DNA of 64,000 bases, taken from the NCBI GenBank assembly GCA_020137815.1, contig CM035360.1, positions 6,076,001-6,140,000 of the forward strand, read 5' to 3'. Source of the stretch: Hormiphora californensis (lineage: Eukaryota; Animalia; Ctenophora). Both the position numbers and the translations under genes were made by a program. Positions 256 through 61,718 of the stretch are shown one piece after another (positions within the stretch are counted from its first letter, which is position 1; each line of letters starts with the position of its first letter). Below the pieces are notes generated by a model. It saw only the letters and a list, made by a program, of their open reading frames with translations, did no database searches and was not told the origin of the DNA.

Positions 256-3200
256 TTATTTTAGTTTAACCGTTATCGTGTGCCATGCATTGCTAAGGCA
301 GCCCCGTAGATTCCAGATATTTCGAACTTTTTCAGGTTGTCGGTTGTAATTTGCATCCACCGCACAACACGTCACCTTCACTTCATCACCAGGGTTCACT
401 CCCTCTGGTAGGGGCACTTCAATCTGAAATAGAGAGAGAGTTGTTATGTTCTAACCCTCCCTTTACATTTGTAAACACAGTCTAGCGGTCTAGCTAGGCA
501 AAGAGTTGGAGTGAACAATTACAAAGTAGGTAATATGAATATTTAATTGTTTGATAGGGGTAATTCCTGTGTGAAACCAATGTTATTGTTTGATCTATCC
601 CTTGTTTTATCTATTAAATTATCCAGAAACTTATGTGAGTGTGTTTGTATAAGAAACATAAACGTGGCCTATTATGGCGCCAGCACAAAAACCGGTAATG
701 CAATGGATAAACCGGATACAGCCGCATATGCAGGAAAATTATCCCACGGTATACGACTTCTGCGCGCTGGTCTCTATTCAGTGTGTATCGCGCGTTACGT
801 TTATGCGATGGAGTTTCAAACTTTTCAACACTACTTTAAACAAATTAATTTGAGATCTCTTCCAACCCGGCCCTCGCGGTCGGCTAGGTATAGTCATGAC
901 GAAAAGAACGAAGAAGAGAACGACGAAGATCACCGTTCCCCCTTCCTCGTCATCGGATTCATGCCCAACATGTAACATCCACTGGGACGATGAAGACGAC
1001 ATCCCCTGTGTGGCTTGTGACAATTGTAACACGTGGTTTCACATCAGATGTGTCGGTATCCCCGATCATTCTTTCTCAAACCTCTCTGAGTCCACCAAAT
1101 GGTACTGTGCTCGCTGTCTTAGAATCCCAGATATTGTACCCGCTACCCCCCTCAAGGCATCATGGGGAAAGCTGTCAGGTCCAGCTCTATCAAACTCTTT
1201 GTTCAGCATCCACTCCAAAATCTCTTCTTTCCGGCCAAACCTTTTCAAACTACCTTCTGGCAAAGCTGGTAAAATGTTTGTAAGTGAGGCTACGAGACTC
1301 GTCAGTGAATGGACTTCTTCTTCCCCCCTCGAGAGTGTTGCACTGACTGCACTACACCTCATGGGTCCTCTTCTTCTTCAAAACCCGGGGCGTAAATCAA
1401 AAACATCTGAGCAATCTGCTGCCCTTCTCCGTCGATTTCTCCTTTGGCAGACGGGAGATTTCGATGCTCTTTTGTCGGAATGCACTGTTATTCAATCCAG
1501 GTTACCCAAGTCCACCGCTGCCGACAATAGGAAAGGTTTTGTTCGGATGATGTTTATCGGGAGAGTAGGGGCTGCTATGAGACTTCTTAGTGCCACTCCA
1601 TCGGCTGCCCTAGAGATAACTCCAGCAGTGGTGAAAGACCTAAAGGAGAAACACCCAGAGGCAGCTCCTCTAAACCCTGACCACGTCATTTCTACCGACG
1701 TACCCCCTTCTTTTGAGCCTGCCATATTTTTCAATCTTAATGCTGACAGCATCAAACGAGCTGCAGCAGCCACGAAAGGCGGTGCTGGACCCAGTGGGAT
1801 GTCAGACCATCTATGGGCCCGTATGTTGTGCAGTAAAGCATTCGGAAAATCATCGGAGTCCCTTGCCCATGAAGTGGCTCTGATGACTAGAAGACTGTGT
1901 ACAGTGTACGTTGACCCTATCTCGCTGAGTGCACTACTATCGTGTAAACTGATCGCTCTAGACAAGAATCCGGGTGTCCGTCCTATTGGTGTAGGTGAGG
2001 TTCTACGTCGGATTATTGGCCGTTCTGTTTCCCAACACCTGAAACCAGAAATCATCCAAGCTGCTGGCCCTCTTCAACTCGCTGCTGGCCAACAGGGTGG
2101 AGCCGAAGCGGCGGTGCACTCAATGAGAGCTTTCTTTGACGATGAGAACGCAGAGGCGGTACTATTGGCTGATGCTCGTAATGCCTTCAATGTTCTGAAT
2201 CGTCGGAATGCATTGGTGAACATTCAGTATCTTTGTCCTGCTCTTTCTATCTTCGCCATAAACCTCTACCGCTCTCCTGTCCGTCTTTACCTCTCCGATG
2301 GCTCTTTCATCCTGTCATCTGAGGGAACCACCCAAGGCTGCAACATCGCCTCTCCCCTTTATTGTATAAGTCTTCGTCCTTTGGTGGATAAACTTTCAAC
2401 CACTTCCCCAAATCAAATTTTCTATGCTGACGATGGAGCAGCTGTTGGCTCCCTTCTCGGTGTTAGGGAATGGTGGGACTCCCTTGTTGCAAATGGTCCT
2501 GGCTATGGCTACTTTCCCCGTCCTGATAAATCAGTGTTGATCGTAAAACCCGAACATATGGAGGAGGCCAAAACGATTTTCATTGACACTGACGTCATCA
2601 TCAAATCAGACGGTCATCGCTATCTTGGGGCACCTTTAGGTACAACAGAATATCAGCAAATGTATATCTCCAAGAAAATTGAGGAATGGGTCTCAGATAT
2701 ACAGAACATCTCCAAAATTGCTGAAACAGAGCCTCACGCGGCTTATTCGGGTTACTGCATGGGTCTATCAAAACGTTGGCTTTTTCTCATGCGAACAACA
2801 CCCAACACAGCCGAGCTCTTTGCCCCCTTGGAATCAGCCATAACCTCCTTGTTGCTACCTTCTATCCTACGCAACCACTTCAGCCCATTACACCGAGAGC
2901 TCTTTTCCCTCCCATGCAGACAGGGTGGCCTTGGAATAAACAACCCCTGTGAGATCGCCGAACTTGAGCACCAACGATCTCTTGTCGCAACTGCACCGCT
3001 CTCTCAAATCATCACCGAACAGAAAACAAATATTGACGATGAGAGAGCAGTGCTAGTTGCCAAGAGATTGAAGGCTGCCAAACAGGAGGTCCTACACTCT
3101 AAGCTTGAAGTGCAGAAGAAACGCCTTGCCGAGGTTGCCGAGAAACTAACACCATCTCAACGGCGGCTTCATGAAGAGCTATGTAGGCGAGGTTCCTCAA

Positions 3201-6200
3201 CCTGGCTAACCACTCTACCTTTGGAGGAACACGGTTTTGTCCTGAACAAATTAGAGTTTAGAGACGCTCTGTCTCTGAGATATGACCTTCCTCTCCACGA
3301 ATTCCCCAACCACTGTGCATGTGGCAAACTAAACTCGATCGAACACAGTCTAAGCTGCTCTCGTGGAGGTTATGTCAACCTTAGACACAATCAGATGCGT
3401 GATCTCACTGCGAACCTCTTAGCTGAGGCTGGGCTTCCACTAACTGGAGAGGAGTTCAAATACCGTTCCGCCATCACCACCGAAGAGGCTCGATTAGATG
3501 TCTCAGCACGTGACCTCTGGTCTCCTATGGCAAAGCTATTCCTTGATTTCCGCGTCTTTAACTCTCGAGCCCCCACCAATCAATCTCTTCCTATTACCAA
3601 GGCTCTCAAGAAACACGAGGATGAGAAGAAGCGAGCATATGGTGAACGTGTCTTGCAGGTCGAAAAAAGTTCCTTCACACCGGTTGTCTTCTCGACATCA
3701 GGAATTATGGGCGATGAAGCAGACAAGTTCTATAAGAAGCTTGCTTCTAAACTTTCCGATAAAACGAAACAATCCTATCCCGACTCTATCCGGTACATTA
3801 GGCAACGATTATCATTCTGCCTCTTGAGGACACTTGTGATCAGTCTAAGGGGTCACCGTGGCACTAGCCCAAAACGTTTCAGCGACAGGAATGATATTAA
3901 CATTTTATACATGATTAAAAACAATTCGAATTAATTTATTATATCCATTTTATGTACAGATAACCTTGATTTCTATATCCATTTTACTAATTGAACCGGT
4001 ACCCCGGCTTTTGCAAAAAAATTTATGCGATGGAGAACCTTCTCTGAAACATATCAGAGCATTTGGGTTCGGTGATCCCTTCTCAACATTGACCCAGTTC
4101 ATTGTACAAGACAGTGCTGGCTTGGGTCCAAGAACGGCCCACCAATCCCCCTGTCAAGCTAGCACGTGCTAGAAGTGTGCCAAATCTGGTCAGTTACCAT
4201 GGCTACCAGGAGGTCTATATAAACCCGGTCACCACGTGCAGATTCTTTGTCCGTTTACTGCTATTGATTTGCTGTTGTTTTCACACCGCACGTCAAGTTC
4301 CGTAAACTATGATTTCTCCTGTAGAAATCTGTCTTCTCTTCGTCGGCATCCTCGTCCTTGTGGCGTTGTCTACGATACTTGCCGGCCTTCACGCTTTTGC
4401 GAGGAGGCTCAGTTCTCTGGAGGCGTCTGTTCAGGGTGTCTCTGTTGACCTTGCTTCTTCGGGAGCTCGCGTCACTGACAACTTGACAGTACTGAAGTGG
4501 GGAGTCATTCACGTGGCAGACCAGATCAAGAGACACCAGACAGACTGCAAGGCCCACAGTCTAGCTGCACTGGTGAAACTCCTAGAGGCACTCGTGCGTG
4601 AGCACGTAACGTCTCGGGAGCTAATCAGGAACGCTCAGGCGCAATCCTGGCTGGCAATTTCCCAGGTCGTAGACCGGGCAGCACGGAGGATAGCTGGCCA
4701 GTCAGGTAATTCCTCTACCGTTGAGGTCCAGACGGATGTCGAGCTCGGTCTTGTACCGGGCAAGGACGCACCCGTCCCCTCAGCGGATTCCGTTATCCTT
4801 CAGATGGAGTAAGCCTTTAGTGAGACGTGTGTGCTCCGGCTCTCCATCATGTCTGGTTCTCTTGGTCTCAATGCCCCGTGACTGACTATCCTGCTTCAAC
4901 CTCCAGAGATTCTACTGGCAAGTAGGCCAATTGACGAAGAAAGACCTTTTGCTGTTTATCAGCGGTTCCCGGGTCCTCTCACTCTGACTCCTATTCTGCC
5001 TGGCAAGCAGGATACGGGGAAGGCGTGAGGGGGTTCGGGTTCCCAGAGGGGGGAGTCACTGTGCAATTGCCAGGCGATATCTGACCTCCTTTATTGGAGG
5101 TCAGATAACGCCTAACAATTGCATAGTGACTCTTCGTACCAGCGATGGCCACACAAACTTCTTGTGTGATCATCGTCCCTCTGCCGTGAGCCTGGTTGGT
5201 TGATGGCTCCGTGGGTACGGTCAATCCCACAAAACCCTATATCCCAATAGATCCTTGTAGACCAATAGATCAAGTCAAGTCAAGTCAAGTCAAGTCAAGT
5301 CAAGTCAAGTCAAGTCAAGTCAAGTCAAGTCAAGTCAAGTCAAGTCAAGTCAAGTCAAGTCAAGTCAAGATTAAGTCAAATCAAGTCAAGTCAAGTCATG
5401 ACGATGAAACGGGAACAAGATAAAAACATATGGCATCAAAACCATTGTACTCGAAGATCAGAACATCAAAAGTCAAGGATACCAAAAGTCGAGAACATCA
5501 AAAGACAGCACAATACATCAAGACAGTACAGATAAAGACCACAAGACAGTGTGAACATTTACTTGTACATTTTGCTTCTTTTCGTTTATGAAAAAAGTGT
5601 CTGATATCTTTGTCTACTCTCTAAATTTAAAAGGTGGTTACTCTACTCTACAATAACTGGTCATCATGGACCACATCACCACCAGATTCTGGTCCTGGTT
5701 GTGTTTTGGATCACGTCCCAACTCACCTTCCAGATGGACCAGGACCAGGTCCTGTTTAGCGGAGACTCCTCGTCCTGTATTAGTTCTGCTGTGTGCCATG
5801 TGTCACCCCCATCCAGAGTTACATCCACCCTTATCACCTAGTGGAGGAGTTGTATGAGAGAGTTGTAAAAGATGTGGAATTGGGGAATCAGGAATGGGGA
5901 GATCACGACGGAAACTATCCTACTTTATGTTTATAGTCACTACCCGGTTCTCAGTGTGCAGCACTATAACAGTTGGTTTGGATGAACAGCGAACAATACA
6001 AGGGCTAACATTGTGTTATACACTATCTGTGCAGTGTTATAGTCCGTGGGGGTGGAATATGGATACAATGAGTTTTACCTTGGCGCCTGCCCCACTATAA
6101 GCGTATCCTCTAAGAGGTATCTTGTTCCCAGGTAACACCGTTACAGTATCTTCATTAAGCGGGTCACACACCTGGCAAGGGATCGATGCAGTATTAGGGA

Positions 6201-9026
6201 CACAGGATAAAGTAATATTGAAAACAAGAAAATTACATAGTACTAAAGAGGAACAATTGAGTCGTATACACGACACAAAAGATAGGGACAAAACTATCAC
6301 AAATCTGCTCAGTTTTACCATGCTATTAATTGGTTGATTCTGGATTGAAACTGCAGTTTTGTTGTCAAAATCCACGTTGTGCCAGTCAATACTCGGGTTG
6401 AACCCTGTAGCAGGAAGAGAGGTGTTGCTCAGAAAGAGAGGTGTCACAGTTCACAAACTGGAACAAGAAACATCACAATGAGGGAGAACTTTAAAAATAC
6501 CAATTTCTAAATTCAATATTTCTAGTACCTACCTTTGTAATCTCTCCGCTGCCAATGACTGTGACTCTCCTCGTGGCTGATAGTCATGTTGCCCACCCAT
6601 TTGACGTTCCTTGCACCCACTACACCAGGTGCCACTAATCGCACTGGATATCCGTGATCCCGGGGCAGAGTCTCACCTGAAATTGGGGGGTGTCAGGCCA
6701 TTGACCACTGTAATTCTCACTCAATGCTCTGACCACTGTAATTCTCACTCAATGCTCTAACCACTGTTCTCAGTTCTCACTCAATACTCTAACCACTGAC
6801 CACTGTAATTCTCACTCAATGCTCTGACAGAGGTGGGTTCTTGGAAGAGGAGGAGAAGTGTAGATTAACAAGGAGGGTGACACATGTCTACCAATAGCAG
6901 GTGGCCGGTGGGTAGAGGAATTTGAATGGAATGATGGTTGGCTATGAATTATAATTGGATAATGTTTTTTGGAAGTTATCTACTCGTAGATTTAGAATTG
7001 CTAACCTACCGTTCATGGTCAGCGCTAAGATAACATCTTGTCGTGGATCCATTGCTTTTTCTATCAGTATTGAAGCACCGTAGGGTGTTCCATCAGGACC
7101 AAAATCTAGACCTGGAGAGTTAGGTTTTAGTGACTTTATCTTGTTACATGAAGATCTAGGTATTATTGAGTACATCATGTTTGTTGTTAGAACAAAGTCT
7201 CCCAGATGTCCAACAAATGTACATATAACTGCACTGTGAGCAGCTTCTAACGATCTCGGGCGGTAGGAGGAGGAAGGAAAATGGGAATAAGATAGAGAGA
7301 AGAGTTATACGGTTTACTTTACACAATTCGATAATGCGTTTGTTTCTGTTATTCTGCTGCTGCTTCATCGGTGGTTCAGGGATTTCCGCCTCCCGACGTA
7401 AGCGGATTCTAAACAATCCTATAGATAACTTATCGGGAACTATGACAAGCACACCACCTAAGACCAGAGCAAACTCTTCACCTACCATTGCACCGGAAAC
7501 CACCCCAGATAATAGTGTCGTTACTAATTTTCAATACAAAGGCCAACGAAATGCACATCCATGCACATCTGATTCAAAATCATGGAGGTGTAAGTTTGAA
7601 AGCTGTAAGAATCAACTGGAAGCTCACCAAAGTAACTCAACAATAGGGTCAAATGCAACCTCAACACCTCCATTTTCAACGGAGCAGCAAAGCACAAACT
7701 GGAGCAGCTATGAGGTACAAAACAAATCACAAAGCAACTGCAGCAGCTGTACTTCATTGAAGGTCCTGGTGGGTATTCTGCTTGTTATTGTCGTTACCCT
7801 TACAATCGGTATAATTGTACTACTACGACTTCAGATCATCAACCTACAAACCAATCAGTCCCAGTTGGAAGTCCATAACACAGTCCAGCAATCGGAGGGG
7901 TGCTATGAAACACTACCTATCCCAGCAGCAGGAGTCGGAGAGCAGCATTCCAATCTACAAGTGGGCCCTACTACTAGTACAGCAGCAGCTGACCAAGAGG
8001 AGGACTGCTATGCTACCTTACCAGAAGGTTGTTACGAGTGTCTACCTGGTCTACCTGGGCTACAGCTGGATGTGAAGGAAGATTGCTATGATACATTGAA
8101 CTTCTCCAACAATTCCAGACCACCCCTGGTTACCATAGCAACCACCCAGGTTACCATAGCAGCAAGACCACCCCCATCCCAACGTGACGTTTCGCCCTGG
8201 TGTGGTGGAGGAGGAGGAGTGAGTCACAGAGAGTCTCTAAACAAGGCACCTGGAGGCTCTGGAGAGAACATGGAGGGGTACTCAACAGGAAGACACCTTT
8301 ACAATCACTGCCCAGAGGATACCGCATGTTATGAGATGGGATTAGTTATTGAGAACCCGTGTACAGAGAGTGAAATAATCGAAATAGCAAGTGGAGTAGA
8401 GAGGGTTCACGCTGGTGAAGAGGAGGAGGAGGAGGAGGGTCATTATGAAGTGCCAGACATGGAGGATTAGTTGGCATACGAAGGTCGAAGGAGAACTTGA
8501 CAATTGAGGAATTTGAAAAATTTTAAAGAACAGTAACTAACAGTGTTAAACAGTGAACTGTAGTAGGATTAGAAGTTTTTGGATCACTATGTATATATTT
8601 TTCATTATCTTCAAGAAGTATGACAGTATAACAGACCTATAACTACCTATGATATAACCTGAGAAAGGTATTCAACTCACCATCCACCCAAACATGTTTT
8701 GCCTCTGGGTATTTCTCCTCGCTCCACCCGTAGTGTTTCAGAACATCACACAGCCGGGGTCCAGACCACACGGCATTACTAATAGCTGCCCCTCCCCAGT
8801 TCATACCCCGTACTGGTTTGTGCTGAGGATGGGATCAATTAGGGGAATGGGGGTCAGTGGGGATGAGGATCAAGGGGGATTACACAACTAACCTGTAACA
8901 TGTCTGCTCGTCTGTTTCCAGCACACTGAATGGAGACAGTAACGGTGTGTTGTTCAAACTTAGTTTTTAGATCTTCCAAGGATAAGGTCACTCCATCCTC
9001 TCCCATTCCCATGCCATCGATCTGGT

Positions 9027-9093
<67 letters not shown>

Positions 9094-9115
9094 GAAGAGA
9101 GAGAGAGAGAGGAAT

Positions 9116-9149
<34 letters not shown>

Positions 9150-9217
9150 CGAGAGATGCTATCTCGATAGAGCTCTATCTCTCGCTCGCGATCGCCTTCG
9201 CTCTCTCTCTCTTACTC

Positions 9218-9251
<34 letters not shown>

Positions 9252-9253
9252 AT

Positions 9254-9335
<82 letters not shown>

Positions 9336-9395
9336 CTCTCTCTCTCTCTCATCTCTCTCTGCTCTTTTCTCTCTCCTCTCTCTCTCCTCTCTCTA

Positions 9396-9431
<36 letters not shown>

Positions 9432-11754
9432 TCTCCTGCTCTCTCCATGGAGGTTTAGCTCATGATGGGGGTCATTATCTCCTTACCGTTCCAGAGCCCA
9501 CGTGAGTATGTGAGATACATGGAAAACAAATAAGGAAAGTCAAAGAACTCCATTTTAAATGGATCCAGCCCGTGCCCATGCCCACGTGGAAAACAGATAA
9601 CTCTAAGTTCAGGAAGCAGGACGTTATATCAAGCTATATTTTGACAGTTGTTATTGACTCTTTATCAGAATGTTTTGTTTCGTGGTTGCGATTTTATTAT
9701 TAGCTGTAACAGGTGAGAATGCTTTACACTTTACAGATATTTCTGGTGAATAAACCGATTAAAATTTTCAAGTTTTTGTACAATTTGTGTTGCCATTTCA
9801 GCATGGAGCCCAGTTGAACGCGATATCAAAATACCATTTGATCTGGAGAGCACCCCTCTTCAAATCAAAACTGACTCTCTTACCGGGAGTAAAGAAAAGA
9901 TAAGAGTGGGGACATACACGGTGGATGGACACTTCATTGGAGCAGTGGAAGTGTGGTTTCAAAGTTCTTTGAAATACAAAATTGCAGGTTCCTGTATGAA
10001 ATGGTATGTCAGTTTTCCAATACAGCTATCAGGAGAAGTGGACAAGACGTGGACATTTCGCAAGACGAACACCACTCTTAGTATTGATTGCAACAGGGTG
10101 GAGGTTCTGAACTACCAGTTCAGTGACAGTGATGATAGTAGGTGTGTACCAAGCTGGGGAGGAGATGTAGTGGAATTGATAAAATTTAGTGGGGATCATG
10201 ACTCTGCATCTAACACTTATCGGGCAAAACCAGTAGGTAAGAAAATTATTGATTGTTACAAGAATATCACTAAACTTTCAAATTATTATTCAATTCCTTT
10301 CTCAGCGTGCCCAGGGTTTACCGTGGACGGATCAGTGCAAAGAAGTTGGAACGATACAGATCCAGGACAGACGGTGACAATCAACTGTCAAGAGAGCAGC
10401 TTTGAGCGGACGTGTACTGACAACGGAGAGTGGAGCACTGACATTCCAGCTTGCGAGAAACAAGGTAAGTTGGGAGCTTAGCGCCATAGTTACCCATACT
10501 CGGGTGGTATGTGGTTTGCTCAGCGTGTGGCTAAGTGACCCAAAAAAACAAGGTAAGTCAAATCGGGTAAAATATTGAGTTCAAAAACTGGAGCAATTTT
10601 AAAATGTAATTGCAATGTTTCGTCTGAAATTGCTACAAAAGACAGGGACCTTTTGTAGCGATACGATCGATACATATACAAAACACCCAACTCTACAAAT
10701 TACCTACTTATTTTTATCCGACCCTACCTGAAGTTCATAGGTCTCAGGGTCGATATTTGGAACAGGGTGGTGGTGCCTGACGTAGAACAACTCACTGAAA
10801 AATGTACTTTGTTGGAGCTGTCTGAAAACTAATTTTGAACGTGTATTGTATTTTCATAGATTTCCAGATGGTAAAGTCCGTTTCAAGCGACTTGACCCCT
10901 AATTCTTGGAATTTGGCGCATTGCGTGTGTATTTACAAAGGGGAAATCCTGAATTTCCAGGAATCTCAGGTCAAGTCGTTTGAAACGCACTTTAGTCGGT
11001 CTACATTCAACATATAGGTGAACTTACTTGGGGGTAATAAAATTATCAGCGAGAATGTTGAGGGGAGGTTCAGCGTTGAATGGTCGGGCATTGTTAACTG
11101 AAAAAGCAGGATGCCTGGTCGGTTCATCTTTGTATGGATCATTGGGATCTTCTGCAACCACGTCTGCCACAGCTAGATTTCCAATCCTGTACTTTTCTAG
11201 CAGATCAAATACCTGGAGTTGGAATCAAGTTAAAAAAAGATTCGTTATATTATGTTCTAACATTTGTACTGGATACGGGGAAACAGCTCAGGGTCGAGCA
11301 AGGTAAAGAAAGAGTCGTAAAACAAAAATAAAATATTACTTACGTAAGGTTTCTTATGGACAGCATACAGGGCCCAAAATGGTTCGATGGGTCCCCCAGC
11401 ACCGATAAGCAACTTTTCTCCCCCTGGGTGTTCTGCAATGAACTCTGTGACGTCATAAACACCCTCCTTGAAGGAAACCCAAACTCTACTGCCAGGAGTT
11501 GCCCCATCTCGCTCCATCACATCCTTCGCTGTGTAGGTTGGTAGGTCAACCCGGGGTTGCCCCGCTTTTTCCTCTTCCTCGGACAGGAATACAGCGGCTG
11601 CGGCAGCTGCAGCGAGTTTTACTGGATATCTTGGTTGAGAGTTGTGTTCTTCATACCGGTTGTCATGACGACAGGACGCTCCCCAGCTGGCTCGGGAAGT
11701 TGATAGCCGTCTTACTGTTGATCGACTTAACAGTCTCAAATGGTTTTGGTACAT
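256..11754 (-). CDS. SUOX: Sulfite oxidase (mitochondrial), complete multi-exon gene (~11 exons)
   Basis: Exon 1 (11754-11344): transit peptide plus cytochrome b5 domain ([25 protein letters not shown]). Later exons read PFNAEPP..NFITP (~11212-11028), [10 protein letters not shown] (~10760), IQCAGNRR with the Mo-ligand Cys (~8920), [13 protein letters not shown] (~8822-8681), PYGASI (~7080), [24 protein letters not shown] (~6677-6533), [20 protein letters not shown] (~5838-5727). Last exon [20 protein letters not shown] (423-256). GT-AG junctions. Confidence 0.95.
811..854 (+). other. Spliced-leader (SL) exon copy 1, forming the 5' end of the CRE element
   Basis: GAGTTTCAAACTTTTCAACACTACTTTAAACAAATTAATTTGAG; identical to 59969-60012 and 43/44 identical to revcomp 16238-16281. 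Matches the ctenophore SL as I recall it. Not followed by GT, so not an SL RNA gene. Confidence 0.88.
896..3934 (+). CDS. CRE ORF: PHD finger - reverse transcriptase - CCHC knuckle - restriction-like endonuclease
   Basis: C4HC3 PHD ([22 protein letters not shown]). RT motifs [36 protein letters not shown] followed by [40 protein letters not shown]. Confidence 0.93.
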   Translation: MTKRTKKRTTKITVPPSSSSDSCPTCNIHWDDEDDIPCVACDNCNTWFHIRCVGIPDHSFSNLSESTKWYCARCLRIPDIVPATPLKASWGKLSGPALSNSLFSIHSKISSFRPNLFKLPSGKAGKMFVSEATRLVSEWTSSSPLESVALTALHLMGPLLLQNPGRKSKTSEQSAALLRRFLLWQTGDFDALLSECTVIQSRLPKSTAADNRKGFVRMMFIGRVGAAMRLLSATPSAALEITPAVVKDLKEKHPEAAPLNPDHVISTDVPPSFEPAIFFNLNADSIKRAAAATKGGAGPSGMSDHLWARMLCSKAFGKSSESLAHEVALMTRRLCTVYVDPISLSALLSCKLIALDKNPGVRPIGVGEVLRRIIGRSVSQHLKPEIIQAAGPLQLAAGQQGGAEAAVHSMRAFFDDENAEAVLLADARNAFNVLNRRNALVNIQYLCPALSIFAINLYRSPVRLYLSDGSFILSSEGTTQGCNIASPLYCISLRPLVDKLSTTSPNQIFYADDGAAVGSLLGVREWWDSLVANGPGYGYFPRPDKSVLIVKPEHMEEAKTIFIDTDVIIKSDGHRYLGAPLGTTEYQQMYISKKIEEWVSDIQNISKIAETEPHAAYSGYCMGLSKRWLFLMRTTPNTAELFAPLESAITSLLLPSILRNHFSPLHRELFSLPCRQGGLGINNPCEIAELEHQRSLVATAPLSQIITEQKTNIDDERAVLVAKRLKAAKQEVLHSKLEVQKKRLAEVAEKLTPSQRRLHEELCRRGSSTWLTTLPLEEHGFVLNKLEFRDALSLRYDLPLHEFPNHCACGKLNSIEHSLSCSRGGYVNLRHNQMRDLTANLLAEAGLPLTGEEFKYRSAITTEEARLDVSARDLWSPMAKLFLDFRVFNSRAPTNQSLPITKALKKHEDEKKRAYGERVLQVEKSSFTPVVFSTSGIMGDEADKFYKKLASKLSDKTKQSYPDSIRYIRQRLSFCLLRTLVISLRGHRGTSPKRFSDRNDINILYMIKNNSN
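4309..4812 (+). CDS. Orphan 167-aa ORF with N-terminal hydrophobic helix, in the sequence interrupted by the CRE element
   Basis: ATG-initiated; hydrophobic residues ~6-30; TATATAAA at ~4216; no recognisable family. Confidence 0.3.
   Translation: MISPVEICLLFVGILVLVALSTILAGLHAFARRLSSLEASVQGVSVDLASSGARVTDNLTVLKWGVIHVADQIKRHQTDCKAHSLAALVKLLEALVREHVTSRELIRNAQAQSWLAISQVVDRAARRIAGQSGNSSTVEVQTDVELGLVPGKDAPVPSADSVILQME
5270..5397. repeat. (TCAAG)n pentanucleotide microsatellite, possibly a LINE 3' tail
   Basis: About 25 near-perfect copies. Confidence 0.95.
6703..6827. repeat. ~28-bp intronic minisatellite
   Basis: GACCACTGTAATTCTCACTCAATGCTCT about 4 times, imperfect. Confidence 0.85.
7334..8470 (+). 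CDS. Intronless type I membrane protein with multiple cytoplasmic Tyr motifs, nested antisense in a SUOX intron
   Basis: Signal peptide [14 protein letters not shown]; S/T/N-rich ectodomain; [23 protein letters not shown]; tail with CYETL, CYATL, CYECL, CYDTL, CYEM, HYEV. Lies between SUOX exons at ~7111 and ~8681. Confidence 0.75.
   Translation: MRLFLLFCCCFIGGSGISASRRKRILNNPIDNLSGTMTSTPPKTRANSSPTIAPETTPDNSVVTNFQYKGQRNAHPCTSDSKSWRCKFESCKNQLEAHQSNSTIGSNATSTPPFSTEQQSTNWSSYEVQNKSQSNCSSCTSLKVLVGILLVIVVTLTIGIIVLLRLQIINLQTNQSQLEVHNTVQQSEGCYETLPIPAAGVGEQHSNLQVGPTTSTAAADQEEDCYATLPEGCYECLPGLPGLQLDVKEDCYDTLNFSNNSRPPLVTIATTQVTIAARPPPSQRDVSPWCGGGGGVSHRESLNKAPGGSGENMEGYSTGRHLYNHCPEDTACYEMGLVIENPCTESEIIEIASGVERVHAGEEEEEEEGHYEVPDMED
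9029..9445. repeat. (GA)n tract followed directly by (CT)n tract
   Basis: About 125 bp GA-rich, then about 260 bp CT-rich. Confidence 0.9.
9670..10464 (+). CDS. Secreted/surface protein: signal peptide, ctenophore-type extracellular domain, sushi/CCP-like module; 3' end unresolved; nested in a SUOX intron
   Basis: Exon 9670-9712 [14 protein letters not shown]|gtgag. Exon from ~9802 [40 protein letters not shown]..gtaag (~10237). Exon ~10306-10464 [25 protein letters not shown]|gtaag. Confidence 0.7.
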
Positions 11755-15224: not shown

Positions 15225-16181
15225 CTATCCCACTTGGATAACATTATTACGGATGAAGTAGCAGCCGTCAGGATCTTCTGATCGTATCCGCTTCAAAGTG
15301 GACCTTAGAGCTTTTTGCTCTTTCAGTTCAGAGGGCGTAAGATCCGGAGAGAGATAAACAGCCGAAAATTGTTTGGAATCTTTGAGGTTTCGTGCCTTTC
15401 TGAGGAGTGCGAGGAGAGTCGCTCTCTTCTCCAGGGATACTAAGAGCGGTCTAGGGCGCTTCTCATTTCTTTCGCCGATGCGTTTCATCGTAGTCACTTT
15501 CGGTTTCTCTTTTAATTCCTCAAAAAGTTCGTCTAAAGTAGTTTTAGCTACTCTATCGGTTGTTTCTGGGAGACCAAACACAACCATGTTCTTCTCTCTT
15601 CCAGGCTGTAGGACGGGAGTAGGATGATTCACTGGTAGTGATTTTCCCACTTTGGGGGAGGTTGCAGCACAATTCTGTGCTAGCACAGTAGAGTAGGCTT
15701 TCACCTTCTGCACCGATGCTGTCACTGTACTGAGTTGTTGGTTCTGGTGGTTGATGACCGTTTGCTGAAGCTCGATCACGCTAACCCGATGGCGGTCAAG
15801 TTCTTCTTTACATTCACGCAGCTGTTTCTCGAGGTTTTCTGCACTGATAACCGTTTCAAAATTGTTCATTGTTGCTCGGGCAAGTTTCATACTGGAGAGA
15901 AAAATACGCGAAGTAGCCTCGATTATTTCACTCGTAGTTCGGTCCTTGAGACAATGTCTAAAGTACGAACCCCAGTGCTTGCCAGGCGAAGCTATGCTGT
16001 CGTTGGTTAACATTGAATCGGGTGCAGCTCGAATCGATCTATAACATTGAGTAAACTCATCTGGTGTGATGCTCGTCGTGTTGTCCGAATTCAACAGGTA
16101 AACTTCAGAAACAAACTCATTTACTGTCTCTTCTAATCGTTTTATCACAGGGTTATCGCCCTCGTACTTCGCTTCCGACAT
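15225..16181 (-). CDS. CR1/L2-type ORF1 protein (coiled coil + RRM-like + CTD)
   Basis: Coiled coil, then KNMVVFGLPE..KRIG..RPRPLLVSL..LK..VYLSPDLT..YFIRN, the typical LINE ORF1 C-terminal signature. Confidence 0.8.
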   Translation of the reverse strand: MSEAKYEGDNPVIKRLEETVNEFVSEVYLLNSDNTTSITPDEFTQCYRSIRAAPDSMLTNDSIASPGKHWGSYFRHCLKDRTTSEIIEATSRIFLSSMKLARATMNNFETVISAENLEKQLRECKEELDRHRVSVIELQQTVINHQNQQLSTVTASVQKVKAYSTVLAQNCAATSPKVGKSLPVNHPTPVLQPGREKNMVVFGLPETTDRVAKTTLDELFEELKEKPKVTTMKRIGERNEKRPRPLLVSLEKRATLLALLRKARNLKDSKQFSAVYLSPDLTPSELKEQKALRSTLKRIRSEDPDGCYFIRNNVIQVG

Positions 16182-16237
16182 TATCAGCGTTTCGTTTTTC
16201 TGCCCTTCGGGGCTGTTACATCGGATTCATCTTCCTG

Positions 16238-16281
16238 CTCAAATTAATTTGTTTAAAGTAGTGTTGAAAAGTTTGAAAATC
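16238..16281 (-). other. SL exon copy 2
   Basis: Revcomp GATTTTCAAACTTTTCAACACTACTTTAAACAAATTAATTTGAG; one mismatch to the other two copies. Confidence 0.85.
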
Positions 16282-27811: not shown

Positions 27812-29368
27812 TTATTCAACAAGTGATCGAAAAGACTTTGAGTCCTGGAAAATATCACTTCTCACTGCTAAACACAAATTTACTTTTGAAATGTCAGGCC
27901 CAGCGACATTAAAAATTTTGGAGAAAGTGGACTTGGCTGACTCGACAAGAGTTTCCCGACTCTCATCATTCGTTCCATAAAAAAAGTTTTTCCCTCTCAC
28001 ATCACAATACACATAATTAAATAACCAGTAGCATATGTAAGCCATAGGAAGGACTGGGGCAAATTTTCCCTTGAAGCAGTATCGATAGAAATCCTCAGAA
28101 GTTCCAGAGCCAAGCCTCTCAGGGCAATAAAGATCTGTACGGTGAAGCTCAGGATGCTGTACTCGATTTCGAATCAGCCGAATTATATCACTAAGGTTAC
28201 TATCGCTAGCCAGTTTAAACCCATAAAGTTGTTCTGGAAGTAGGCCTAGAGGCTCTTGTTTTTTCTTTGAGCCTTTCTTTTTTTTCGGTGGTACAGAAAA
28301 CTGTTTCCAGTATTGTTCAACTTGTGCTTTCAATGCTCCTCCAATGAATGGAGGGGTTGTGAGTAAAGTATTGCACTCGTTGAGAAAGGTCATCTTTTTT
28401 TCAATACTCCAAAAGAGTGGGTGATTAAGAATCTGCGGGGCGGAAATACGCTTTTCAGCAGCTGTTACAACACAAACGTCAATCAACAAGTCGGCAAACA
28501 ATGTGTCAGCGTGTAAATTTTTCTCCGAAATAAAAGATACCCTCAATGATTTGGCTATGTTTCCGTTGCGATGATGATCAACCCCAAATGGATGCTCAGC
28601 TTTAACAGATGTCCACTCAGAACTTCGTTGAAATGTCATTATGAATTGTGCCAAACAACCGAAAGCAAACACGTCTCCAGAACACCCGGCTTTCTTTGAG
28701 CCATTTAATGTTTCTGGTGGCATCCAACCGTGTGATCCAACTCTTTGTTGACTTACAGTAACACACTTCCTGTAGGGATCAACTTCTCGAGACAGGCCAA
28801 AATCAGATATTACGGGAATGAATTTGTTAAGCTGAGGGTTGTATTTAACCAAGATATTCGAGGGTTTCAAATCCCGGTGGACAACTCCTTCCCGGTGCAT
28901 GTAGTCCATTCCATTTGCAATCTCCAATAACATTTCCTTTTTACTTGACCAATTTCCATCCAAGTCGTTTTTTGGATACGGGGTCCCAAAAACAGTTGTT
29001 CCATTCGATAGAAGAGTGACCAAAGATCCAAGACAAAGCTCAAGGGCAATTTTCTCGAAATCATCGTCGAAGTCGTAGAAATAATACCGTATGATATTTT
29101 CGTGCTTTAGTTTCAAAAGGGCACTAATCTGGTGATTCACATTCTTCTTTAGCTCCTCATCATCACTCTGGATCCTTTTCACAGCAACAATCTTTTCACT
29201 TGGACCTTGGACGAACAGCCCGAAGTAAACGATTCCTTCACTGCCTTTATCAATACGAAAAGCCGGTTTAGCTATGAGCTTGATTGGACTCCCAAACTTG
29301 CCGTAGAGATCCTGGAAATTTGCATTCCCTTTCAAGAATCTGCGAGCCACAATGTTTTCGTATGACAT
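27812..29368 (-). CDS. IRE1/RNase L-like kinase + KEN ribonuclease, copy 1 (intronless, no sensor or TM domain seen)
   Basis: VAVKRI, HENIIRYY, IALELC, HRDLKPSN, ISDFGLS, GSHGWMPPE, DVFAFGC, HPFG, HPLFWS; KEN motif DIIRLIRNRVQH. Likely start MSYENI at 29368; the ORF extension upstream is (CT)n. Confidence 0.88.
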   Translation of the reverse strand: MSYENIVARRFLKGNANFQDLYGKFGSPIKLIAKPAFRIDKGSEGIVYFGLFVQGPSEKIVAVKRIQSDDEELKKNVNHQISALLKLKHENIIRYYFYDFDDDFEKIALELCLGSLVTLLSNGTTVFGTPYPKNDLDGNWSSKKEMLLEIANGMDYMHREGVVHRDLKPSNILVKYNPQLNKFIPVISDFGLSREVDPYRKCVTVSQQRVGSHGWMPPETLNGSKKAGCSGDVFAFGCLAQFIMTFQRSSEWTSVKAEHPFGVDHHRNGNIAKSLRVSFISEKNLHADTLFADLLIDVCVVTAAEKRISAPQILNHPLFWSIEKKMTFLNECNTLLTTPPFIGGALKAQVEQYWKQFSVPPKKKKGSKKKQEPLGLLPEQLYGFKLASDSNLSDIIRLIRNRVQHPELHRTDLYCPERLGSGTSEDFYRYCFKGKFAPVLPMAYICYWLFNYVYCDVRGKNFFYGTNDESRETLVESAKSTFSKIFNVAGPDISKVNLCLAVRSDIFQDSKSFRSLVE

Positions 29369-29464
29369 GGCTAAACAGAGGATAACAGTGGGGTTTACAG
29401 TGGGAGAACAATATAGGGAATAGGGATTTTGATTGCGGGGTGAGTCGGGAGAGAGAGAGAGAGA

Positions 29465-29536
<72 letters not shown>

Positions 29537-30034
29537 AAGAGAGAGAGAGAGAGAAAAAATCAGAGAGGGAAAGATAATGATGAAACCCGGAGAGGGCAAA
29601 GGTGTCAGTTTGACAACAAAAGTGGTCACCTTTCCAGTCAACTAATTTCTGATTTTTCCATAATATTTACAATTTACATTGTCAAAAAATATTGTACTCT
29701 AAAAAAACCCAAACGGTTCGGGTACTTCAATAAATCGTGCTTAGATTATGGGTTTATAATTTACGAGAGAGCAAATTTTACTCTCAAACCCACACCTCTG
29801 ACCTCCAAACCCACACCTCTGACCAGAACACTGTCACCACACCCATGGCCATACAATTGCGATTACAGATACCCCAAGTTTCAAGTAAGCGTAAGAGGTG
29901 TAAAAAATTGTTAAAGAGGGCTACCCGCTGAGTGGTCCATCCGGCAAAACCAGGTCGATCAACGTAAACTTTTGCGGCTTACCGTATCTTTCAGTCATTT
30001 CCATAGCAAAAAACTACCGGTAGTACAGACTTGA

Positions 30035-31657
30035 TTATTCTGTGTGTGATGAGCTTGGCCCCAATCCCATTGCAGCCGATTCAGCACTCATTTGCTTAGT
30101 AGATCGGAGCATATCACTCATGGATTTCCTCATACTTTCATTAGTCATCGAAAACGAAACAAAGCTGAACAAATTCTTAAACCAAACACTTGAAATAAGA
30201 AGCCCAGCAAGCTTGAAAATCTTAGTAAAAGTAGCGTTAGCTGATTCAATAAGAGTTTCATGTCCGTACTTGTAAATGTCCCCCTCGCAGTATAACTTAT
30301 CATGAGAGTAGCATATGTAAGCCATAGGAAGGACTGGGGCGAATTTTCCGTTGAAGCAGTATCGATAGAAATCCTCAGACGTTCCAGAGCCAAGCCTCTC
30401 AGGGCAATAAAGATCAGTACGGTGAAGCTCAGGGTGTTGAGCTTCATTAGTAATTAACATAATTATTTCGCTAAGTCGACTGTCACTAGTCAGTTGAAAC
30501 CCATAAAGTGATTCCGGGACAGGCTGTTGCTTCTTTTTCGACCTTTTGCCTTTTTTCTTCGGAATAGACAACTGCTTCCAGTAGTTTTCAACTTCTCCAG
30601 CTCCCCTCACCCCTCTATTTAAGGAGCTTTGAGGTGTTGTGAGTGAAGTATTGCACTCTTTAAGGAAGGTCATCATTTTTTCAGCAGACCAAAACAAAGG
30701 ATGCTTCAAAATCTGTTGAGCAGAAATTCGCTTTTCAGCAGATTTATATACACAAACGTCAATCAACAAGTCAGCAAACAATGTGTCGGCGTGTAAATTT
30801 TTCTCCGAAATAAAAGATACTCTCAAAGCCCTTGTGATATTTCCGTTCCGTTCATGGTCAACTCCAAATGGATGCTCAGCTTTAACAGATGTCCATTCAG
30901 AACTTCGTTGGAATGTCATTATGAATTGTGCCAAACAACCGAAAGCAAACACGTCTCCAGAACACCCGGCTTTCTTTGAACCATTTAATGTTTCTGGTGG
31001 CATCCATCCGTGTGATCCTACTCGTTGTTGACTTACAGTAATACACTTCCTAGAAGGATCAATTTCTCGAGACAGGCCAAAATCAGATATTACGGGAATG
31101 AACTTCTCAATCTGATGGTTGTATTTAACCAAGATGTTGGAGGGCTTCAAATCCCTGTGGACAACTCCTTCCCGGTGCATGTAGTCCAGTCCATTAGCAA
31201 TTTCCAATAACATTTCCTTTTTACTTGACCAGTTTTCATCTACGTTGTTACCTGGATATGGGCCCCCAAAAACGGTTGTACCATTCGACAGAAGAGTGAC
31301 CAAAGATCCAAGACACAGCTCAAGGGCAATTTTCTCAAAATCATCATCATAGTCGTAAAAGTAATACCGTATGATATTTTCGTGCTTTAGTTTCAAAAGG
31401 GCACTAATCTGGCGATAAACATTCTTTTTTAGCTCATCATCATCACTCTGGATCCTTTTGATAGCCACAATCTTTTCACTTGGACCTTGGACGAACAGCC
31501 CGAAGTAGACTAATCCTTCGCTGCCTTTACCAATTCGGAAGGCCGGTTTAGCCTTGAGCTTGATCGGACTCCCATCACCAAACTTGCCGTAGAGTGTCTG
31601 GAAATCTGCATTGTTTTTCAGAAAACCTTGAGCCACACTATCCTCATAAATTGACAT
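30035..31657 (-). CDS. IRE1/RNase L-like kinase + KEN, copy 2
   Basis: Close paralog of copy 1; KEN motif altered to EIIMLITNEAQH. Start MSIYED at 31657. Confidence 0.88.
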   Translation of the reverse strand: MSIYEDSVAQGFLKNNADFQTLYGKFGDGSPIKLKAKPAFRIGKGSEGLVYFGLFVQGPSEKIVAIKRIQSDDDELKKNVYRQISALLKLKHENIIRYYFYDYDDDFEKIALELCLGSLVTLLSNGTTVFGGPYPGNNVDENWSSKKEMLLEIANGLDYMHREGVVHRDLKPSNILVKYNHQIEKFIPVISDFGLSREIDPSRKCITVSQQRVGSHGWMPPETLNGSKKAGCSGDVFAFGCLAQFIMTFQRSSEWTSVKAEHPFGVDHERNGNITRALRVSFISEKNLHADTLFADLLIDVCVYKSAEKRISAQQILKHPLFWSAEKMMTFLKECNTSLTTPQSSLNRGVRGAGEVENYWKQLSIPKKKGKRSKKKQQPVPESLYGFQLTSDSRLSEIIMLITNEAQHPELHRTDLYCPERLGSGTSEDFYRYCFNGKFAPVLPMAYICYSHDKLYCEGDIYKYGHETLIESANATFTKIFKLAGLLISSVWFKNLFSFVSFSMTNESMRKSMSDMLRSTKQMSAESAAMGLGPSSSHTE

Positions 31658-32358
31658 GGCTTTAAGAAAATAAGGAGAGTGGACAGAAACAGAATTGGAG
31701 AAGATTGTTTTAGCAGAGGATAGCTCTCCAATCTCCGAGCATTGTCTTTTTATGCATTTATCACTGAGATATTTCCCCCGCCCGGGTAAAGGCCGAAGGC
31801 CTTCACCTGGATACCTTTTGCAAAAAGACATAGGGTTTTAGAAATCTGTAACGGATATAGTGACTATGTGTAGCAAGACCATCACAGATGTCCCGTTTCA
31901 GTTGCGAGGGGCAACGTGTAGCAACTAGAGCCATACACACAACAAAAAACGTCTCCTTCATAAACCACTTCATTGACACGTTTTCAGAAAATGTGTGGTG
32001 CGCAATGCCACAATGTGGTGCACAGTTTAGCGCTACTAAAACACAATGATTTATTCTATACTGTTTGAGTGATATATCAATGATCGGAAATGTCAGCCCG
32101 CTTTCACATTAGATGGTTATGAAAATAAGGATTGGCAGGGAAACATAGCATTATGAAACATAATGCAGGTATTTTTGTTGATACAACGGGGCAAAGAAAA
32201 CAACCGCATGCAATTAAGTTTTACATAATTATATCTTTGCCTCTTATTATCTCTTATAAAATAAGAATAATTTTGAAGAAATAATATCAAGTAATTTTCT
32301 CCGCCCGTATGCGTTTTGCAGAAAGGCATAGGGGTGTAGAAATCTTTAACGGATATAC

Positions 32359-34569: not shown

Positions 34570-34724
34570 CAGTCGGACCCCGATTTACGGGGATGCTCGG
34601 GGAAAGGGTTTTACCCGGTAAATCGGGGTGCCCGGTATATCGGGGTCAAATACCGTTAATTTCCTATATCGGGGAATTTTATCCTCCCGGTAAATCGGGG
34701 TTCCGGTAAATCGGGGTCCGACTG
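34570..34724. mobile_element. Tc1/pogo-type MITE, family copy 2
   Basis: TA-CAGTCGGACCCCGATTTAC..GTAAATCGGGGTCCGACTG-TA. Confidence 0.85.
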
Positions 34725-34936
34725 TATGACTAAAATATCCATCTTTCTCTCTCTTAGATTCATAATATGTAATTAGTGAATATCCATTCTTGGTTACCGT
34801 AGCAACAAACAACACGGATAGCTACACAGATTTACCTCTTCACAAGACCAGATAAATGGGATATATTATCTATAGAGTATTGATATAACACGGTGGGACA
34901 GATGGGATAAAAATTCAGAAGAAAAATTAATGTAGT

Positions 34937-35180
34937 GTGCCTGATAAAATTTTAACCTGGGCTAGAATTTGGGTACAGTGTCCCCTCTCTTCTTGAGAGA
35001 GACAGCACAGGAGGATAGAAGAAGGGGGGATATCATACCCAACGCTAGAATGCTTCCAGAAACCACCACTTGTCTACTTAAATACTTTGTTGTCGCACCG
35101 TAGCGGCATCATATAAACCCTTAGCTACAAGTGGTGGTTTCTGGTAGAATTCTAGGCGGTGTTAAAATTTCACCAGGCAC
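34937..35180. mobile_element. MITE-like element
   Basis: GTGCCTGATAAAATTTTAAC..GTTAAAATTTCACCAGGCAC, plus internal inverted repeat CCAGAAACCACCACTTGT/ACAAGTGGTGGTTTCTGG. Confidence 0.65.
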
Positions 35181-59968: not shown

Positions 59969-60012
59969 GAGTTTCAAACTTTTCAACACTACTTTAAACA
60001 AATTAATTTGAG
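59969..60012 (+). other. SL exon copy 3
   Basis: Identical to 811-854; followed by TTTTAG, not GT. Confidence 0.88.
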
Positions 60013-60058
60013 TTTTAGGATAAAGCTGATGTAACAGCCCACGAGGGGCAGAAAGAAA

Positions 60059-61078
60059 ATGGTAAATACTGATAATGAAGAAGAAGCAACTCCTCGGATT
60101 TACCTGGCAGCTCATCCTGGAAAACCGGCTACTGATATTGATAGGAGGAAGGTCAACGACTGCCAAAGTGATACAGTATATTGGGTAAAAGACTTGTTGT
60201 CGGATTGTTCAGGGTTTGGATACAGTAACCCAGAGGCAGTGAGATATGGAACTGGTCCTCCACCAAGGTCTACCTGGGATGATTTAGAGGTTCCGTCTGC
60301 GAGCAAGCTTAATACGCTGTCGAAGAAAAAGCTTTTAGATTTTACTAAGAGGGCGTGTAGTATTTTTCTTGAACAGACATTTCCACTAATTGAAAAGTTG
60401 CGTGACAAGGGTTCTGAAAGTATGATGGTGAGAGAGTGCGAAAAGGAGCTCAGACAACATGGAAAGGAGCTAATTAAAGCTCAACGAGACCTCGTAGCAG
60501 CACAAGAGGAACTACTCAATATCCAGAGGCAGTTGCTTGAGAAGAGGGAGGTTGAGATTACAGCTGTGCAGTCAACGGCACAGCAAGAATTGAAGAGCTT
60601 CGCATCCGTTTTGGAGAAAGAATGTGCCTCGGCTCTGGCTCCAAGGAAGATTCAATCAGCGATTGTGGCTGCCTCTGAGGACCGTGGGTGCAACATCATC
60701 ATCCATGGCCTGGAAGAGTCAATAAATAGTAGCGTAGAGCTTGAAACTCAAGTTGAGTCTCTTCTTGTTGAGCTAGGAGAAACTCAGAACGTGAAATCAG
60801 TGGAGCGCATGGGAAGGCAGTCTTTAACTGTCAGACCAGTGAAAGTCGTACTGAAGAGCAGAGACGCTCAGATGTCGATCCTGTCGAAAAAATCCCGACT
60901 AAAAAGGACCGGCAAGTTCGATAAAGTCTACATTTCGCCTGACAGGACTTTGGAGGAACGAAATGAGAGAAAACAGCTTGTTGATCGACTGAAGGAAATG
61001 GTTCAAAGGTCTCCTGGAAAACACTACTTCATTCGTGGGAAGGAGGTGGTAGAAGCACCAGGGACTACTGAGAATTGA
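60059..61078 (+). CDS. CR1/L2-type ORF1 protein of SL-headed ORF1-only element B (~59969-61189)
   Basis: Coiled coil; NIIIHGLEE..ERMG..RPVKVVL..LK..VYISPDRT..YFIRG. No ORF2; short TTTCAAG-type tail at ~61166-61189. Confidence 0.8.
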   Translation: MVNTDNEEEATPRIYLAAHPGKPATDIDRRKVNDCQSDTVYWVKDLLSDCSGFGYSNPEAVRYGTGPPPRSTWDDLEVPSASKLNTLSKKKLLDFTKRACSIFLEQTFPLIEKLRDKGSESMMVRECEKELRQHGKELIKAQRDLVAAQEELLNIQRQLLEKREVEITAVQSTAQQELKSFASVLEKECASALAPRKIQSAIVAASEDRGCNIIIHGLEESINSSVELETQVESLLVELGETQNVKSVERMGRQSLTVRPVKVVLKSRDAQMSILSKKSRLKRTGKFDKVYISPDRTLEERNERKQLVDRLKEMVQRSPGKHYFIRGKEVVEAPGTTEN

Positions 61079-61718
61079 AATTAATTTTGTTGAGTTTAGA
61101 AGTGGTGAGCGAGGAAAGGACAGTTGAGTTGAAAGGTGGTCATTTGTTTGATAGCCTCAATTTATTTTCAAGTTTCAAGTAAGTTTCAAGAAAGGAAGAG
61201 CGTTGTGTGAAGCTGTATTGTTGTTTGCTGCTGACGCTGTTTATCTGAGTAGGGACTTGTAAATTTATTTGAACTTGAACTTGAACAGGCCAATATAGCT
61301 CGAGCATAAGCCAAGGTTTTGGTAACTTTTTCATTTGACGACGATTTTCGGGCATCAACAGCTTTATAAATCCCTGTATCGGAGATATTGATGCACAAAA
61401 TCAAGATTCAAACCCAAGATGTGCAGTTTTTGCTGTCAAAATGAAAAGTTGTTAAGGAACAGTTAAAAGATGCAAACAATTTTGTGTTTTTAGACCTTTT
61501 GGTCTCAACTCTCATTCGAGTAGAAAATATTGTTAGAAAATGCATGAATGATGACAACAAATTTTCCGGGTCAATACAACTGCAACAGCTTTTCTGACCC
61601 ACTGTTTCCAGGGGCCTAACCACCATGCCAGGCGTTTAATATTATGGTCCCGTCCAATTCAGCAGGAATAAAGGATCCAGATTGCTAACAATTCCATTTG
61701 GATTTAGGGTTCGGGGCG

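Follow-up and report, generated by a model that had tools for sequence, protein, structure and literature searches.

Analysis of a 64-kb stretch of the genome of the ctenophore Hormiphora californensis (the window, i.e., the whole stretch of DNA that was analysed) indicates that a retrotransposon without long terminal repeats (non-LTR) inserted at positions 814-4035 of its forward strand is headed by a DNA copy of the spliced leader (SL) of its host. Probably this element was made through target-primed reverse transcription (TPRT) of its own SL-trans-spliced, polyadenylated mRNA, the splicing step being read from the exact junction at the end of the SL exon. The element, which encodes a protein with a PHD finger, a reverse transcriptase (RT) and a restriction-like endonuclease (RLE), is referred to below as the main element.

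Structure of the insertion and its empty allele

The inserted unit, composed of the SL, an open reading frame (ORF) and a run of seven adenines (A7), measures 3,222 bp and is flanked by direct repeats (Table 1). The repeated 14-mer, TTTATGCGATGGAG, matches the 64 kb at no more than one mismatch only twice, namely at the two flanks of the element; in the shuffle control the mean was 0.05 matches, and one of 100 shuffles reached two. An earlier note on this DNA had described the layout as target-site duplication (TSD), SL, ORF, poly(A) and TSD, with the last three bases of the TSD doubling as the first three of the SL and with neither GT nor any remainder of the SL intron behind the latter. All of this is borne out, the shared bases being GAG and the 44-mer of the SL being followed directly by ATCT. 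The start that the note assigned to the element, nucleotide 1 of the SL, holds in so far as the SL stands at the head of the insert; the exact first base does not, because GAG is already present in the empty site and the first inserted base of the SL can be resolved only to SL nt 1-4.

The SL-free empty site, which the note had reconstructed from the sequence, exists: three runs of DNA, from three samples, include contigs with it, each of them lacking exactly 3,222 nt. In runs X4 and X5, position 799 is joined to 4022, with 14 letters that fit both sides and with a shorter side of 154 and 177 letters, respectively. In run X1, position 803 is joined to 4026, with 10 letters that fit both sides, and the contig has further differences, as another haplotype would. 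The TSD is 11-14 bp long, and the insertion is polymorphic. Since the contigs skip these 3,222 nt as a whole, the SL, the ORF and A7 were inserted together, as a single unit, where no SL had been. The main element thus bears the hallmarks of TPRT, i.e., A7 at the junction, the TSD and an empty allele, and it has no LTRs.

Just 3' of the insertion, at 4168-4400, the summed contig depth exceeds that of the single-copy flank several-fold in all three DNA runs, and the main element may have landed beside another repeat, with the reservation that contig depth does not equal copy number. The depth also climbs toward the 3' end of the main element. This would fit the presence of 5'-truncated copies, and was left unused for the same reason.

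The 44-mer as the spliced leader of the host

The paper on the genome of H. californensis prints exactly the 44-mer of window positions 811-854 as the trans-spliced leader and finds it on 56% of Iso-Seq reads, in agreement with the view of the earlier note that the 44-mer belongs to the 5' ends of host mRNAs (PMC8527503). Its 718 genomic copies are treated in that paper as 'spliced-leader loci' and, in the part of the text available, are not tied to retroelements (PMC8527503). This was the single paper matched in a full-text literature search with pieces of the 44-mer. In the window, the 44-mer is present in three copies at no more than three mismatches, versus none expected (Table 1).

A scan of metagenome contigs for the exact last 25 nt of the SL gave 107 stretches, and 106 loci were analysed. 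In 96 of the 107 occurrences, fewer than 10 non-SL letters lie between the SL and the contig end. Of the ORFs of at least 100 aa downstream of the SL at all of these loci, 57 of 78 match cellular Pfam families (among them Ras, G-alpha, dynamin, collagen, cathepsin, proteasome and ribosomal proteins), three match an endonuclease together with a reverse transcriptase, and 18 have no Pfam match. Because so many SL-led ORFs match cellular families, the SL heads many different mRNAs. Viral contigs contained no match to the SL 25-mer and no relative of the main ORF.

SL RNA genes

One metagenome locus, L068, represents true SL RNA genes. It contains two copies of the SL, 778 nt apart and with an identical upstream flank (..CCATCAGC), and the SL continues there with GTAAGCTGAG.. 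(GTAAG), followed by an Sm-like site, CCUUUUGG. Each 778-nt unit also has a 5S rRNA gene (263-381 and 1041-1159; Rfam, 106 bits), and in the fold of the SL RNA (-32.8 kcal/mol, z -2.76) the donor site is paired within the first stem-loop. The DNA runs with the main element cover the SL gene of L068 at high summed depth, beginning about 120 nt upstream of the SL and ending about 100 nt downstream of it, and host DNA contigs have no listed difference from L068 664-774. Within the compared stretch of this locus (400-1000), outside which the 5S segments lie, host DNA contigs matched only a core of the SL gene of about 270 nt. None of the listed host pieces in this comparison reaches 31 letters to each side of the border between SL exon and intron, because contigs break in the repeated SL. 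By these sequence comparisons, the host has SL genes of the form flank-SL-GTAAG, from which the copy in the window differs on both sides. The difference from true SL RNA genes that the earlier note expected is therefore found in the GTAAG after the SL and in the shared upstream flank, neither of which is present at the main element.

At L068 690-693, the SL gene reads CAGTTTC, whereas GAGTTTC is found in the published SL, in two retro-copies and in the mRNA-like contigs L045 and L069; one retro-copy with this reading is that at 59968-59971 of the window. The leading G of the SL may be untemplated or cap-derived, or it may come from a minor variant of the SL gene.

The encoded protein

The ORF of the main element is intact. 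Its match to the Pfam family RVT_1 (E 2.3e-05, 24.6 bits) is under the cut-off of 29.6 bits, and the ADD motif and further RT residues are conserved among 58 aligned relatives. Residues C807, C809, H817 and C821 of the CCHC motif, as well as R830-H831-N832, D868, D884, E908 and K911 of the predicted endonuclease, are present in at least 90% of the 58 aligned sequences, and by analogy the latter may have a catalytic role. The relatives of the main ORF comprise 752 proteins at E ≤ 0.001, the best of which is 75% identical. One of them, from the hydrozoan Clytia, is described as an 'uncharacterized protein', and nearly all others are without names. The Atlas clusters nearest to the main ORF carry PHD and RVT_1.

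The AlphaFold (AF2) model of the main ORF, based on the 58 relatives, has a predicted local distance difference test score (pLDDT) of 88.8. The best matches of this model in the PDB, as found with Foldseek, are R2 proteins that initiate TPRT (E 8e-19 to 3e-17, about 900-1100 columns). They are followed by LINE-1 ORF2p with only about 600 columns, and R2 and LINE-1 matches together span E 8e-19 to 5e-11. A sequence search of the PDB with the main ORF gave only matches to PHD fingers. By its model and its conserved residues the protein is suited to TPRT, and an assignment of the main element to R2-like non-LTR elements with a restriction-like endonuclease is supported, for this wider group and not for CRE specifically.

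At 59345-59762 (+), about 200 nt 5' of the third SL copy of the window, lies the decayed remnant of a related RT-endonuclease element. It is truncated at its 5' end, contains a frame shift and matches aa 854-965 of the main ORF with 46% identity.

Other retroelements headed by the SL

All three SL copies of the window head retrocopies, the upstream flanks of which are unrelated and the junctions of which fall at the same SL base. The second retrocopy has GAT in place of GAG in its SL, with T at SL nt 3; the span listed for it in Table 1 stops at the end of its ORF, and it is 82% identical over 1040 nt to the SL-led metagenome contig L009. The third is 82% identical over 1226 nt to locus L054, from which it differs in the upstream flank, and it likely ends in a short TTTCAAG-like repeat near 61160-61190. 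The ORFs of these two retrocopies, of 318 and 339 aa, share about 30% of residues. Neither has a credible match in Pfam, and a search for TSDs of the two retrocopies gave nothing of at least 8 nt. Both ORFs are of a coiled-coil type and leave the impression of LINE ORF1-like proteins (LINE, long interspersed nuclear element); in the Atlas, one of them adjoins ctenophore clusters.

Sequence upstream of the SL (at least 10 nt of non-SL letters) is available for 11 of the 107 metagenome occurrences, at 10 loci. Two of the 11 belong to the SL gene of L068, another, at L013, is a partial leader of 25 nt that precedes a peptidase mRNA, and the remaining eight are retroelement-like heads. Together with heads that have shorter or no upstream sequence, the retroelement loci number 12 (Table 1). 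Loci L020, L029, L032, L049, L066, L098 and L105 form one cluster of LINEs with an apurinic/apyrimidinic endonuclease (APE type). Of these, L029, L032 and L049 have ORF1 and an ORF2 that matches Exo_endo_phos and RVT_1; in L020 and L066, ORF1 and the start of ORF2 are present, and L098 and L105 are short fragments. Pairwise identity in the cluster amounts to 32-59% for ORF1 and 45-82% for ORF2, and the first SL base present lies anywhere between nt 2 and nt 17, as would result from small truncations at the 5' end. The other five loci, L054, L009, L063, L096 and L101, belong to the coiled-coil ORF type.

In two record sets the SL is internal to contigs, and these sets are presumably DNA; 10 of their 11 loci are retroelement heads and one is the SL gene array. 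In the DNA runs of the host, the SL bin gathers hundreds of contigs. The flanks of the SL in the host are many and different, since the loose ends of these contigs agree only to 0.4-0.5 on both sides. A common upstream flank, which the earlier note had named as the sign of SL-gene targeting, is thus not seen among the other SL-headed retroelement copies, either in the window or at the metagenome loci.

The 5' untranslated regions (UTRs) of the coiled-coil ORFs (window 16197-16237 (-) and 60013-60058 (+), L054, L096 and L101) share the motif GTAAC(A/C)GCCC-NNNN(N)-GGGCAGAA, which forms a 4-bp GC hairpin just 5' of the ATG. The bases directly after the SL in the coiled-coil families resemble spare acceptors (TTTTAG, TTTCAG, CAG). 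At L063 1922-2289 (-), AT-rich, non-coding sequence of 351 nt precedes an embedded SL. The record set is otherwise mRNA-like, and this contig may be a read-through precursor across a DNA-encoded SL.

Table 1. Features of the main element and of other SL-headed retroelements (positions refer to the window; L numbers denote metagenome loci)
Feature	Position	Strand	Basis or remark
Left TSD copy, TTTATGCGATGGAG	800..813	+	last 3 bases GAG (811-813) double as SL nt 1-3
SL exon DNA copy, 44 nt, GAGTTTCAAAC...AATTTGAG	811..854	+	44/44; ends exactly at SL 3' end (..TTTGAG)
5' UTR, 41 nt, SL junction to ATG	855..895	+	sequence
Intact ATG-to-stop ORF, 1012 aa	896..3934	+	ORF translation
PHD finger	aa 23-74, nt 962-1117	+	Pfam 29.4 bits, cut-off 24
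RT	Pfam stretch aa 359-514, nt 1970-2437; ADD aa 511-513	+	RVT_1
CCHC motif	aa 807-821, nt 3314-3358	+	C807, C809, H817, C821
Restriction-like endonuclease (predicted)	R830/H831/N832, D868, D884, E908, K911; nt 3383-3628	+	conservation
3' UTR	3935..4014	+	sequence
Short poly(A), A7, at 3' junction	4015..4021	+	sequence
Right TSD copy, TTTATGCGATGGAG	4022..4035	+	sequence and empty-allele joints
Second SL-headed retrocopy	15225..16281	-	SL 16281..16238 (43/44); 318-aa coiled-coil ORF 16181..15225
Third SL-headed retrocopy	59969..61190	+	SL 59969-60012 (44/44); 339-aa coiled-coil ORF 60059-61078
Retroelement-like heads with upstream sequence	L020, L029, L054, L063, L066, L098, L101, L105		unrelated upstream flanks
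Retroelement heads with shorter or no upstream sequence	L032, L049, L096, L009		bring the total to 12 loci

Origin of the SL at the head of the main element

If the main element was copied from its own trans-spliced mRNA, the spliceosome would have attached the SL to its primary transcript at an acceptor just 5' of ATCTCTTCC. The encoded protein would then introduce a nick in the target, start synthesis at the A-tail and carry the copying through to the capped end of the RNA, and the end of the cDNA would be joined by means of the GAG microhomology. It is more speculative that the DNA-encoded SL, which ends in UUUGAG at the RNA level, could serve as an acceptor for a fresh SL on read-through transcripts, and that with such a retro-copied SL as acceptor the element would not depend on having its own promoter.

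What characterizes an SL-tagged retrocopy is found here, namely the SL exon joined exactly at its 3' end and without the SL intron, as well as poly(A), TSD and unrelated flanks between copies, poly(A) and TSD being taken from the main copy. The junction lies exactly at the exon end in three unrelated kinds of elements and is therefore as splicing predicts. The central claim of the earlier note, that the SL is the element's own 5' end and not an indication of its residence in an SL gene, gains from the SL-free empty allele, the identity with the published SL, the GTAAG of the true genes and the unrelated flanks.

Several points weigh against this reading. No RNA of the main element was seen: none of the listed runs is recorded as RNA, and the presumed RNA run X14 covered only the SL bin of window 500-4400 and only 673-756 of L068. 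Splicing of the main-element transcript has to be inferred, because contigs cannot separate a spliced-on SL from a DNA-encoded one. The junction of flank and SL in the filled allele is bridged by none of the contig pieces listed for the three DNA runs, and the evidence for this allele therefore comes from the assembly of the window. No SL-less copy of the family with an upstream acceptor was found, none of the 106 metagenome SL loci holds an RT of the main-element type, and no second full-length copy was obtained. The search with the exact 25-mer makes the perfection of the SL at metagenome loci partly a matter of construction. Finally, no difference separates the third window copy from L054 in the 50 nt that follow the SL, and because these are as identical as the SL itself, conservation of the SL alone does not prove its renewal in each cycle.

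The same stretch (window 59969-60062 versus L054) speaks for the foremost of the alternatives, according to which the SL is a fixed, inherited 5' module that was captured once and is transcribed from DNA, perhaps as a promoter or initiator, with no fresh trans-splicing. A promoter role of retro-copied SLs has been proposed for dinoflagellates (PMC5585692), and every retro-copy seen here has the SL in its DNA, so that progeny RNA could carry it unspliced. However, at least three unrelated kinds of elements (the RLE type, APE-type LINEs and the coiled-coil ORF type) share the exact exon-end junction of the SL, and repeated independent acquisition by splicing is therefore needed anyway. Moreover, the three SLs of the window match the leader at 44, 44 and 43 of 44 positions, though the ORFs of the second and third retrocopies share only about 30% of residues, and a transcript start precisely at SL nt 1 from arbitrary sites is without known basis. 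We consider this explanation unlikely.

Reverse transcriptases of non-LTR elements switch templates, U6-L1 chimeras being an example. The SL could accordingly be the product of a template switch from unspliced element RNA to SL RNA or to a free SL exon, and the abundance of SL RNA, as well as the occurrence of a group II intron RT template-switching complex among the titles of the PDB matches, would be in keeping with such a chimera. A switch to whole SL RNA would, however, add the SL intron (GTAAGCTGAG..), which is absent from all three window copies and from all 12 retroelement loci. The junctions fall at the same SL base and, in the LINE cluster, at homologous positions of the element (TGTTCC/GTTCC/GTTTC), as would be the case for a splice acceptor, and the SL-led contigs of the family of the second copy (L009) belong to an otherwise mRNA-like record set. 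Such an origin is thus highly improbable.

Insertion of the element into an SL RNA gene, in the manner of SLACS, CZAR, CRE and NeSL, was rejected for the main copy and retains hardly any probability: the protein does belong to an RLE-bearing group that includes clades targeting SL genes (PMC4640811), but the empty allele of the three DNA runs has no SL, the SL lies inside the target duplication, no SL intron follows 3' of the insert, and the upstream flank is unlike that of the SL gene (..CCATCAGC).

Relation to known systems

Copying of the trans-spliced mRNA of the main element has its closest parallel in dinoflagellates, where relics of the leader (DinoSL) were found 5' of retrogenes (Slamovits & Keeling 2008, as cited in PMC5585692, PMC3229502 and PMC7245778). 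In these recycled cDNAs, as in the main element, an SL-bearing mRNA was reverse transcribed and reintegrated, with the SL left at the 5' end of the DNA copy, and the dinoflagellate SL, like that of Hormiphora, ends in AG and could be spliced again. The dinoflagellate copies are, however, host genes mobilised in trans, the relics of which are truncated by re-splicing inside the SL, while the main element is an autonomous animal retrotransposon with a full-length SL and a clean TSD, and is polymorphic. For parasitic flatworms, 597 candidate SL loci on LTR and LINE elements were discarded in a study of 2025, with the same origin suggested in one sentence (PMC12582326). The leaders were partial there and, as far as the available text of that paper goes, no element anatomy, TSD or empty site is given (PMC12582326). 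The main element differs in its full SL, intact structure and empty allele, and in coming from a different phylum. In Hydra, the SL was found in 2025 on about 30% of Iso-Seq reads of transposable elements (PMC12220107). The RNAs of these elements use the trans-splicing of the host, and the available part of the report stays at the RNA level and does not address copying of the SL into DNA (PMC12220107). Our literature search found no report of SL-headed retrotransposons for ctenophores. The kind is already known from dinoflagellate retrogenes, the flatworm suggestion and Hydra RNAs, and the main element is an unusually clean ctenophore case of it.

SLACS, CZAR, CRE1/CRE2 and NeSL-1 are single-ORF non-LTR elements that insert into SL RNA genes; CRE has one or more N-terminal zinc fingers of the C2H2 type, and R2 has an N-terminus with zinc finger (ZF) and Myb motifs. 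The main element resembles the former group in its single ORF, in the order of RT and restriction-like endonuclease, and in its association with the spliced leader. In contrast to them, it inserted where there was no SL and brings the leader along as part of itself. The finger at its N-terminus scores as PHD. The R2 proteins, as the best structural matches (PDB 9nl3, 8gh6, 9nl2, 9dou), cover nearly the whole main ORF, with CCHC and endonuclease residues conserved. Sequence identity is only 14-16%, and the main element lies outside rDNA and has a PHD finger. SL exons as targets, as well as NeSL, are mentioned in PMC4640811, where relatives of the Utopia/NeSL group are given one to three ZF motifs.

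Other features of the window

At 36915-39145 (+), two adjoining ORFs of 230 and 457 aa are present, the second of which has a weak GIY-YIG match (E 0.00088, below cut-off). Their sequence suggests a Penelope-like element, at the head of which no SL was seen. Tandem paralogous ORFs of 518, 598, 331 and 176 aa at 27812-36278 (-) and 39327-39857 (-) share a C-terminal domain and have kinase-like motifs (HRDLKPSNILV); this family is split at about 36.9-39.1 kb by the GIY-YIG element. The 'ORFs' at 8930-9505 and 40091-40786 are of low complexity, consisting of (GA/TC)n-like and 24-nt tandem repeats, and were rejected as genes for being composed of repeats.

Significance

As read here, the main element is an unusually clean case of an animal retrotransposon that retrotransposes from its SL-capped mRNA: it is intact, its leader is complete, and both a TSD and a living empty allele are present. 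It carries the 'mRNA recycling' described for genes of dinoflagellates over to autonomous elements, in an animal phylum that is among the earliest to have branched off, and bears on the old question of how a non-LTR element that has landed without a promoter obtains a complete 5' end and is expressed.

Genomic copies of the SL in ctenophores cannot be counted as SL genes and can mislead gene annotation from long reads; artefactual 'shared first exons' were remarked on in the 2021 Hormiphora genome paper (PMC8527503). Many of the 718 genomic 'leader loci' likely have to be re-read. A broader proposition, toward which we are rather more doubtful than inclined, is that non-LTR retrotransposons of ctenophores, in at least three designs unrelated to one another, may be promoter-less riders on SL trans-splicing, in which the retro-copied SL (UUUGAG) would act as an acceptor on read-through or host-intron transcripts and thereby regenerate a capped, full-length template in each cycle. 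Most of the 718 loci, together with some of the 'parallel nested intronic genes' reported for Hormiphora, would then be retro-copies and not SL genes. SL-headed copies also provide a ready marker of full-length insertions, by which these can be dated and counted.

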